A stretch of 64,000 nucleotides of DNA from an uncultured Bacteroidota bacterium. Lineage in GTDB: Bacteria > Bacteroidota > Bacteroidia > Chitinophagales > Chitinophagaceae. Positions 15,428 to 17,660 of the stretch are shown here, in pieces (position 1 is the first letter of the stretch; each line of letters begins with the position of its first letter). A program made the position numbers and the translations under genes. Where the stretch lies: NCBI GenBank assembly GCA_963718975.1, contig CAVRBD010000007.1:5722-69721 (forward strand). The letters run 5' to 3'. The notes beneath the pieces were generated by a model, which ran no database searches, was not told where the DNA came from, and saw only the letters and a list, made by a program, of their open reading frames with translations.

Positions 15428-15457
15428 AAAAAAAAGCCATCCTGAGATCAGGACGGC
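15428..15457 (-). terminator. Intrinsic terminator after the small lipoprotein
   Basis: gccgtcctg-atct-caggatggc followed by a U tract. Confidence 0.75.
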
Positions 15458-15486
15458 CTCTAACGATTGCTTGCCATATAAAAAAC

Positions 15487-15693
15487 TTATTTCTTAATAG
15501 CTGAATCAACTTTCTTAGCAACGCTGTCAATCTTTTTAACTGTGCTGTCAGCAGCAGCTTTTACAGAATCCTTCATTGCACCTGCAGTAGAATCAACTGC
15601 TTTTACTGTAGAATCAACAGCTTTTTCTGCGCTTGAACCTCCGTTGCAGGCTGCGAATGCGCCGATAGCTAATACTAATAAGACCTTTTTCAT
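15487..15693 (-). CDS. 68-aa lipoprotein with six DS(T/V/A) repeats
   Basis: Lipobox FAAC; own promoter box and terminator. Confidence 0.8.
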   Translation of the reverse strand: MKKVLLVLAIGAFAACNGGSSAEKAVDSTVKAVDSTAGAMKDSVKAAADSTVKKIDSVAKKVDSAIKK

Positions 15694-15729
15694 GTAATCT
15701 GAATTTTTTTGTTAATGAATGGTTTCCAG

Positions 15730-15758
15730 TTAATACCGCATTGAAAAAAAAGTAACCC
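15730..15758 (-). promoter_or_regulatory. Candidate ECF promoter GGGTTAC-N13-CGGTATTAA driving the small lipoprotein
   Basis: Identical boxes and spacer length to the copy at 15858..15886. Confidence 0.7.
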
Positions 15759-15857
15759 AGCCTAAAAAGGAATTTTTGAATATTTTTTTTATTAATGCGT
15801 GATTGGTCGTCATTTGGCTGAAAGGCTGTGAGAATATGGAATTTTTGCTGCTATTTT

Positions 15858-15886
15858 GGGTTACTAATCTTTAATTTCGGTATTAA
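15858..15886 (+). promoter_or_regulatory. Candidate ECF promoter GGGTTAC-N13-CGGTATTAA (autoregulation of the sigma gene)
   Basis: Ends 13 nt before GTG15900; mirrors the divergent copy. Confidence 0.7.
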
Positions 15887-15899
15887 ATATAGCCTTAAG

Positions 15900-16478
15900 G
15901 TGAAGAAAGATATTAATGAACAGCTTTTGTTAAAGGGATTGGCAGATAACAACAGAACGGCCATTGAAGCTATCTATAAAGATAATTATAAGATGGTTCA
16001 AACGATGATCGTTGGCAATAATGGCTCGCCTGACGACGCGAAAGATATATTTCAGGAAAGCATGATCGTTCTTTATGAGAAAGTGAAATCGGGGTCGTTT
16101 GAACTGAACTGTCAGATAAAAACCTACGTTTATTCGGTTTGCAGACGGTTGTGGTTAAAACGCCTTGGGCAGTTCCAGCGCACGTCGCCCGAAATTGAAA
16201 GCATTCAAGAAACGGTTTCTGTAGAAGATGATTTTGAAATGCATGAACGCCGCGATGCCGATTTTCATCTGATGGAAAAAGCCATGCAAAGCCTGGGGGA
16301 ACCGTGCAAAAGTTTGCTTGAAGCATATTACCTCCAGAAAAAAAACATGGTTGAAATTGCAGGGAGCTTTGGTTATACAAACGCTGACAATGCAAAAAAT
16401 CAGAAATACAAATGTCTGATGCGGCTTAAAAAATTATTCTTCGATCAATATAAAAACAATGACCAATGGAAGAGATGA
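15900..16478 (+). CDS. ECF-type RNA polymerase sigma factor
   Basis: DAKDIFQES region 2; TYVYSVCRRLW; region 4 CKSLL...GYTNADNAKNQKYKC. Confidence 0.9.
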   Translation: MKKDINEQLLLKGLADNNRTAIEAIYKDNYKMVQTMIVGNNGSPDDAKDIFQESMIVLYEKVKSGSFELNCQIKTYVYSVCRRLWLKRLGQFQRTSPEIESIQETVSVEDDFEMHERRDADFHLMEKAMQSLGEPCKSLLEAYYLQKKNMVEIAGSFGYTNADNAKNQKYKCLMRLKKLFFDQYKNNDQWKR

Positions 16479-17576
16479 ATATGCTTGACTCGATTGAAAG
16501 ATACATCAAAGGAGAAATGCTTCCTGAAGAAAGGGTATTTTTTGAACACCTGCGCAAAAGCAGTCCCAGTGTGGATCAAATGGTGGTTGAACATACCATT
16601 TTCCTAAACCAGATGAATAAGTTTGGTGAAAGAAAGGATTTCAATTCATCATTGAATGATATCCATAATGAACTATTCGAAGCCGGTGATATCAAAGAAG
16701 AGCAGGAAGCAAGAGTTATACGGCTTTGGAAAAAATACAAACGTGTTGTTGCGGTTGCTGCATCTATCGCAGGCATCACTGCATTGGCAATCAGTGTATT
16801 GGTTTCGTATGTGTCACCAAAGGCTAATAATAAATCTATTGAATTGCTAAGCAACCAGGTTTCGGCAGCTTTATAACAAAACAAAAATTATTGACAATAA
16901 AACAAAAATCATTGATAATAAAATCGATGAACTGAAACCCAAATCGCCTGTTGATGCAAAAATGAAAATTGGTGGAACGAGTTTCTTGATTGATGGCAGG
17001 GGATATCTTGTAACAAATGCACACGTTGTAAAAAACGCAAGAGCGGTAGTTGTAGAAAATAATAAAGGCGATGAATTCAAAGCAAAGGTTTTGATTTTGG
17101 ATCCAATTTCTGACGTGGCTATTTTGAAAATTGACGATGCAGATTTCAAGGCTATAAACTCTTTGCCTTACAGCATTAGTAAATCAGGTGCTGATTTGGG
17201 CGAACAAATTTTTACGCTCGGTTATCCGAAAGATGAAATTGTTTATGGCGAAGGCTATATGAGCGCAAAGACCGGTTTTGAGGGCGATACTTTGGCGTGC
17301 CAGATTGCAGTTGCCGCTAACCCTGGAAATAGCGGTGGTCCTGTACTGAACAAAAACGGCGAAGTGGTTGGCATATTAAGCGCAAGGGAAATTCAGGCGC
17401 AAGGCGTTGTATTCGCAACAAAATCAAAAAATATTTTTAGGGCTCTCGATTCTTTGAAAACTGATACAGCTTATATCGGTATAAAAATGCCTACTTCATC
17501 TCAGCTAAAAGGTTTGGACAGGGTTCAGCAAATCAAGAAAATGGAAGATTGCATTTTTCTGGTGAAGAGCTACTGA
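16466..17576 (+). CDS. Anti-sigma-like N-terminus + TM + trypsin-like (S1) serine protease, +1 frameshift near 16860
   Basis: IERYIKGEM N-terminus, VVAVAAS TM, TNAHVV (His), DVAILK (Asp), GNSGGP (Ser). Confidence 0.8.
16875..16928 (+). repeat. In-frame 21-bp tandem repeat (NKTKIID x2 plus a partial copy)
   Basis: aacaaaacaaaaattattgac / aataaaacaaaaatcattgat / aataaaatcgat. Confidence 0.75.
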
Positions 17577-17628: not shown

Positions 17629-17660
17629 AAAGCCATCGATAATTGATGGCTTTATTTTTT
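17629..17660. terminator. Terminator between convergent genes
   Basis: aaagccatc-gataatt-gatggcttt with A/T tracts on both sides. Confidence 0.75.

Follow-up and report, generated by a model that had tools for sequence, protein, structure and literature searches.

Two genes that point away from each other in an uncultured member of the Bacteroidota, one for an ECF-type sigma factor and one for a 68-aa lipoprotein, are each preceded by the same bipartite sequence, and the question this raises is what the two copies are for and which protein would read them. By the window we mean the whole 64,000-nt stretch of DNA that was analyzed. A preliminary description of it had proposed that the two sequences are promoters of the adjacent sigma factor, that this sigma regulates its own gene, and that the small lipoprotein is a target. 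ECF sigmas commonly autoregulate and require near-consensus bipartite promoters, and many of them act locally, on three promoters or fewer (PMC7776599).

Two identical bipartite boxes face divergent genes

A pattern search of the window confirmed two bipartite boxes of the form GGGTTAC-N13-CGGTATTAA, one on each strand. The pattern has two matches in the window compared to a mean of 0.01 in shuffled sequences, none of 100 shuffles reached two, and a third match is absent from the window even when two mismatches are allowed. The sigma-side box, GGGTTACTAATCTTTAATTTCGGTATTAA (15858-15886, + strand), is predicted to serve the sigma operon as an autoregulated promoter. It is made up of a -35-like block GGGTTAC (15858-15864) and a -10-like block GTATTAA (15880-15886) with a 15-nt gap between them, and its end lies 13 nt from the GTG of the sigma gene at 15900, exactly as had been claimed; the start site of the operon is predicted from the sequence at about 15892-15895 (+). 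The lipoprotein-side box, GGGTTACTTTTTTTTCAATGCGGTATTAA (15758-15730, - strand), is the predicted promoter of the mini-lipoprotein gene. It carries the same blocks (GGGTTAC at 15758-15752 and GTATTAA at 15736-15730) across the same 15-nt gap, faces the divergent 68-aa lipoprotein gene as described, and ends 36 nt before the ATG at 15693. It also held true that the spacers differ while the boxes are identical, since the two A/T-rich 13-nt spacers agree at only 7 of 13 positions.

The geometry of the boxes bears on an alternative in which they are operators for a repressor or activator of both divergent genes, and the true promoters lie elsewhere in the intergenic region. Looping by a dimeric regulator is conceivable with two identical inverted sites about 100 bp from each other, a short inverted TAC...GTA is common to the blocks, and the central intergenic region contains an A/T-rich stretch that is conserved in the genus, all of which would suit such a regulator. 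However, each box is asymmetric and lies at a fixed short distance from its own gene, always in the sense orientation toward that gene's start, and the centers of its two blocks are about 21.5 bp apart, which is the spacing of -35 and -10 elements. A sigma-70-type promoter scan, which does not model Bacteroidota promoters, also returned no promoter in the intergenic region, and there is no transcription-factor gene within the conserved locus.

The A/T-rich stretch between the boxes, ..TTTTTGAATATTTTTTTTATTAATGCGT.. (window 15783-15805), is conserved at genus level, and where the boxes are closely spaced a T-run occupies the whole gap. The stretch or T-run may be an UP-like element shared by the two boxes. 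An Rfam scan of the intergenic region found no family near threshold.

The box pair is conserved across Chitinophagaceae

The window was assigned to a Puia-like genus of Chitinophagaceae, for which the best named matches are Puia sp. MAGs, and further matches include Terrimonas, Ferruginibacter, Flavisolibacter and Flavihumibacter. We compared 126 orthologous loci, 30 from the genus, 80 from the family and 16 from a phylum-wide sample, a set that covers Puia-like and other Chitinophagaceae plus two further families. A scan of relatives for the motif had been suggested, and the box pair was recovered at the orthologous loci: both boxes are present in 123 of the 126, and the other three loci are cut by contig ends. 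The pair is kept down to about 46% sigma identity, with the other families lying at 46-56%, and this range of identities indicates that the conservation is not an artefact of near-identical genomes.

The relatives refine the conserved core to (G)GGTTAC-N15(16)-GTAT(T/A)AA. On the sigma side, GGTTAC-N15-GTATTAA is found in 109 of 110 Chitinophagaceae loci, the one exception reading GTATAAA. The divergent side reads GGTTAC-N15/16-GTAT(T/A)AA and is followed 30-44 nt on by a small lipoprotein ORF in 119 of the 126 loci. The second half of the box in the preliminary description therefore needs trimming, because its GTATTAA part is conserved and its leading CG varies among relatives. Across about 95 distinct sequences, column conservation is near 100% for GGGTTAC and GTAT(T/A)AA and high for the T-run that follows the -35 block; the flanks and the rest of the lipoprotein-side spacer are poorly conserved and free to vary. 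The sigma-side spacer is more conserved than the lipoprotein-side spacer, beyond the need of a plain spacer, which hints at an additional constraint there.

These comparisons also bear on the idea that the two boxes match because they descend from a local inverted duplication or from the end of a mobile element, with no regulatory role. A duplication could in principle yield two identical 16-position matches in a single genome, but across about 95 distinct orthologous sequences the blocks do not vary and the spacers and flanks do, the genome holds no additional copies of the box, and the locus shows no transposase or repeat features. We regard such an origin as scarcely conceivable.

In 90 of 107 distinct sequences, 10-14 nt lie between the end of the sigma-side box and the start codon. 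In contrast to what a composite operator of constant geometry would require, the upstream edges of the two boxes are anywhere from 14 to 525 bp apart (median 72), so that the boxes are independent modules. Furthermore, 49 of 114 distinct intergenic regions have no more than 40 bp between the boxes, so in many genomes there is no room between them for the separate promoters that an operator would have to control. Together with the orientation and block spacing described above, this makes the operator explanation very improbable.

The motif changes along with the sigma factor

If the boxes are promoters, they might still belong to another alternative sigma factor, in which case the adjacent sigma would be a target of that factor and no autoregulator. 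The genome has about 17 sigma-like candidates that could fill this role, and the protein that would bind the boxes is assigned by comparison. Nevertheless, the motif pair travels with the adjacent sigma at about 125 loci and falls to background in genomes of the order that do not have this sigma. Specifically, 12 same-order genomes without a sigma match contain 0-1 core matches, the level of a reversed-pattern control, and the sigma-bearing genomes carry the pair. In addition, no paralogue of the window sigma was found in its genome at E<=1e-10, which likewise speaks against another sigma as the reader of the boxes.

The motif also drifts as the sigma diverges. Sigma homologues at 35-40% identity within the same order have a similar motif but different partners and targets. 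At 30-36% identity, in other classes of the phylum (L142-L153), the motif is replaced, as expected if it follows the sigma: these loci carry a different, partly overlapping bipartite pair, TTCACC-N12-ATGACAT facing TTTACC-N12-ATGTCAT, between the sigma gene and a gene for a large exported protein, and this pair probably supplies the promoters of a sister ECF group.

A finer form of concerted change was seen in four genomes in which the sigma-side -10 block reads GAAT, GAAT, GGAT or GCAT (L129, L133, L135 and L139), since in each of them the lipoprotein-side box has the same base at position 2. Three of the four sigmas encoded at these loci carry G65P and E68T/A (window numbering) in an inter-helix loop of sigma-2. 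We take this loop to be the one through which ECF sigmas recognize the flipped base of the -10 element. The covariation between the -10 motif and the loop residues is suggestive, and it is confounded by phylogeny. The coincidence of -10 changes with loop substitutions in three of four cases, the drift and replacement of the motif, and its co-occurrence with the sigma are all contrary to what is expected if another sigma reads the boxes, and we consider that explanation quite improbable.

The sigma operon and its putative anti-sigma/protease partner

The gene next to the plus-strand box (15900-16478, + strand) encodes a 192-aa ECF-type sigma factor with a GTG start. The protein matches TIGR02937 (sigma70-ECF) at 62.6 bits compared to a cut-off of 42.9, over residues 21-178, and Pfam Sigma70_r2 at 24.3 compared to a threshold of 24; the Pfam region-4 model gave no above-threshold match in it. 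This places it among the ECF (group 4) sigmas, which consist of sigma-2 and sigma-4 domains only, measure about 190 aa and match the ECF superfamily model. Orthologues with 63-86% identity are present in at least 30 species of the genus.

Among 107 distinct loci, the sigma gene starts with GTG in 90 and with TTG in 14, and thus with one of the two in 104 (loci L010-L140). With the start site predicted above, the leader of the sigma mRNA would be only about 2-8 nt long before the GTG, making the message near-leaderless and an unusual translation substrate. The short leader and the GTG or TTG start may together keep the positive feedback loop weak. At four divergent loci, the first in-frame sigma start is found merely 2-3 nt past the box, so these loci must use another start site or another start codon.

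The sigma stop codon is overlapped by a second gene (16466-17576, + strand), which encodes an anti-sigma-like N-domain, a TM helix, a coiled stalk and a trypsin-like protease of the HtrA/DegS type. The N-domain, of about 95 aa, is cytoplasmic, occupies the anti-sigma position and is followed by the TM helix. None of the anti-sigma models of Pfam or NCBIfam matches it, and the trypsin domain (Pfam Trypsin_2 at 1e-24) is the sole match in the protein; a PDZ domain was not detected.

In the relatives, the anti-sigma/protease is one gene of 361-372 aa, and it forms a single frame in 115 of the 126 loci. The window shows two frames in its place, at 16466-16876 and about 16862-17576. Over 15450-17193, a Logan contig from run ERR11630394 has the identical sequence apart from how long a G-run and a T-run are at 16864-16873, and taking the shorter version of each of these runs would yield one continuous frame. 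Since the two assemblies disagree exactly at the frame break, the split is more likely to reflect a homopolymer or assembly error, or heterogeneity in the population, than a dead gene. An exact-protein look-up for transcript-like contigs returned a single contig of 12.9 kb. The end of the sigma operon is marked by an intrinsic-terminator-like hairpin with a T-run after the protease gene (17629-17653, + strand).

The mini-lipoprotein unit

The lipoprotein gene (15693-15487, - strand) encodes 68 aa, with a signal peptide, the lipobox ..GAFAAC and a mature part of 52 aa that reads CNGGSSAEK AVDSTVK AVDSTAG AMKDSVK AAADSTVKKIDSVAKKVDSAIKK and ends in a C-terminal KK. The mature part contains six D-S-(T/V/A) sequons. 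The O-glycosylation sequon of Bacteroidota is D-(S/T)-(A/I/L/V/M/T) (PMC8550257), and as an exported protein that carries it, the lipoprotein qualifies at sequence level as a candidate substrate of the general O-glycosylation system of Bacteroidota. Sequon richness extends to its relatives, with a median of five per approximately 50 aa in 111 distinct orthologues and a mean z of 4.1 relative to composition shuffles. The Asn after the lipid-modified Cys is found in 98 and a C-terminal Lys in 83 of these 111 orthologues.

Between the lipoprotein-side box and the ATG is a conserved leader element, GAAACCATTCATTAAC (15711-15726, - strand), which is kept as AAA(C/T)CATTCA in the genus and as AAA.CATT across the family, and which may mark the region of the start site or belong to the 5′ UTR of the lipoprotein mRNA. 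An intrinsic-terminator-like hairpin with a T-run follows the gene (15461-15432, - strand) and ends the unit, indicating that the lipoprotein gene is monocistronic. With such hairpins on both sides, the two transcription units are delimited.

Proposed mechanism

Taken as a whole, the comparative evidence, which consists of geometry, conservation, co-occurrence and concerted change, supports the original reading of the boxes as promoters of the adjacent ECF sigma with the lipoprotein as its target. We estimate at about 0.8 the probability that they are divergent promoters read by RNA polymerase carrying the ECF sigma of 15900-16478, one for its own operon and one for the mini-lipoprotein. The locus has the features of an autoregulated promoter, in that a fixed-spacing bipartite motif is conserved in the sense orientation upstream of the sigma gene, and the same motif is present at another target and co-varies with the sigma. 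We infer from these features the recognition of the boxes by the adjacent sigma, the positions of the transcription starts and the release of the sigma.

In this mechanism, GGGTTAC(C/T)TTT would be the -35 element, contacted by sigma domain 4, and GTAT(T/A)AA would be the -10 element, contacted by sigma domain 2, with a gap of 15 nt or, rarely, 16. One promoter would drive the sigma gene and the translationally overlapping anti-sigma/protease gene from a start only a few nucleotides before the GTG, giving positive autoregulation. The other would drive the monocistronic mini-lipoprotein gene, whose product is rich in Bacteroidota O-glycosylation sequons. The membrane anti-sigma would free the sigma, presumably after an envelope signal that acts on or through its own periplasmic protease domain, and this release would turn both units on together, these being the whole regulon in the genome.

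It is possible to go one step further and suppose that the module is a closed envelope surveillance loop, in which the lipoprotein is a reporter substrate or ligand of the protease domain of the anti-sigma, and the circuit gauges lipoprotein export or O-glycosylation and is tuned by its own near-leaderless GTG sigma mRNA. We think this extension unlikely; if true, it would mean that RseA, DegS and the stress signal have been compressed into two genes.

Relation to known ECF systems

The catalogue of local ECF promoters by Todor et al. 2020 reportedly builds on the ECF group motifs of Staron 2009 and Rhodius 2013. ECF group motifs from Casas-Pastor 2021 (PMC7826278) are also among its bases. 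The arrangement in the window resembles the local autoregulated promoters described there, in which a near-consensus bipartite -35/-10 motif immediately precedes the sigma gene (Todor et al. 2020, PMC7776599). As in those regulators, the motif is repeated at one neighboring target, the promoters number three or fewer, and the pattern is found by phylogenetic footprinting (PMC7776599). The difference lies in the motif itself, GGGTTAC-N15-GTATTAA.

Many ECF promoters, including those of the sigma-E, SigW and SigM consensus, have AAC in the -35 element and CGT (CGT/GTC) in the -10 element. By this comparison, which is a test of resemblance and no strict requirement, the window boxes are atypical, since GGGTTAC is without the AAC and GTAT(T/A)AA is without the CGT. 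Neither the motif nor the module was found in the texts searched, and the motif may already be listed among the supplementary motifs of the large ECF surveys.

Because an anti-sigma-like domain and a site-1-type protease are fused in it, the module is reminiscent of sigma-E/RseA/DegS of E. coli, with its autoregulated rpoE promoter. There, as is proposed for the window, the ECF sigma shares its transcript with an anti-sigma that crosses the membrane once and transcribes its own operon, and a periplasmic serine protease of the HtrA/DegS type takes part in the pathway. In contrast to the sigma-E system, a single polypeptide carries the anti-sigma-like domain together with the protease in 115 of the 126 loci, and no PDZ domain was detected. 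The sigma-E regulon comprises about 100 genes, whereas the window module has two promoters and its sole outside target is the mini-lipoprotein.

A second point of comparison is the EcfO/Das1 (ECF21)-Reo/Dma1-NigD system of Bacteroides and Phocaeicola, which has a tiny regulon made up of the sigma itself and several lipoprotein genes, and whose proposed role is to report envelope stress (PMC10927553, PMC9308784, PMC13114119). What the two systems have in common is an ECF sigma from Bacteroidota whose very small regulon includes a lipoprotein target. However, the EcfO/Das1 anti-sigma spans both membranes and has a C-terminal beta-barrel, whereas the partner in the window is a 361-372 aa trypsin-domain protein, and the targets are NigD lipoproteins in the one case and a 68-aa sequon-repeat lipoprotein in the other. 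We therefore rejected membership in ECF21 or EcfO-Reo (Das1-Dma1), as both the anti-sigma and the targets differ. The distant homologues of the window sigma in other classes, which carry another motif, lend no support to EcfO membership either.

The mini-lipoprotein also resembles the PG1828 family (NCBIfam NF050142, named after a Porphyromonas gingivalis lipoprotein), whose members are likewise small Bacteroidota lipoproteins of about 60-70 aa. The window lipoprotein scores 27.9 bits against this model, below the cut-off of 50, and duplicated orthologues in one other family reach the cut-off. NF050142 also has matches in unrelated control genomes, and its other matches are not beside this sigma and are without a box. 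With a match that is sub-threshold and a model that is unspecific, the likeness appears to consist mostly of signal peptide and low complexity, and a link to P. gingivalis SigH/PG1828 was rejected on the same grounds.

The principle at work is already known, as an autoregulated ECF promoter with a neighboring target is a textbook arrangement and an ordinary bacterial gene switch. What the locus adds is a precise, genome-wide unique and readily testable candidate promoter motif for an unstudied ECF sigma lineage of Chitinophagaceae, abundant Bacteroidota of soil and rhizosphere among whose soil members the arrangement is conserved, together with the definition of a putative minimal regulon of two promoters. 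Promoter recognition in Bacteroidota is poorly mapped, and a clean sigma/promoter pair could serve as an orthogonal expression switch; it would also open a way to study what the anti-sigma/protease fusion and the sequon-rich mini-lipoproteins do.

A candidate regulon of two promoters

The preliminary description had spoken of a candidate ECF regulon and had suggested a genome scan for the motif. In the 4.87-Mb assembly, the 27-nt version of the motif has exactly two exact matches, both of them the boxes described here. A weight matrix built from the orthologous boxes and scanned over the genome ranked the sigma-side box best (32.9 bits) and the lipoprotein-side box second (31.1 bits), with the next site at 21.6 bits and merely five sites in the genome above 14 bits. 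The scan thus gave no third credible site, indicating that the regulon in this genome would consist of these two promoters. The suggested regulon is borne out to the extent of two promoters with shared boxes, and nothing in the genome extends it beyond these two units. Local ECF regulators with three promoters or fewer have been described by Todor et al. (PMC7776599), and a two-promoter regulon, as predicted here from the sequence, fits this class.

The lower-scoring weight-matrix matches (on C37, at 21.6 bits, and on C19 and C15) were rejected as members because they are inside or antisense to coding frames, and a site with one mismatch on C71 was rejected because it, too, is inside or antisense to a coding frame. 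An apparently orphan box in G011 and G015 was considered as a small-RNA promoter and dismissed, since it falls within the final codons of an outer-membrane protein gene (..INLGYKF*); this coding end is shared by two closely related genomes, and the box is a chance match. A homologue in the window genome (C57:2466-3110) of a 217-236 aa exported protein was likewise rejected as a member, as it is without a box.

That conserved exported protein is preceded by a third box, with a 16-nt gap, in some species of the genus (L169-L171; G009:C413, G022:C241 and G024:C566). Further variants of the arrangement were seen in another family of the class, where the divergent mini-lipoprotein gene is present as three tandem copies (L175 in G236:C3 and L176 in G077:C96). 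In G077 each of the tandem copies has its own box in front of it, and in G236 two boxes stand in tandem upstream of the sigma gene.
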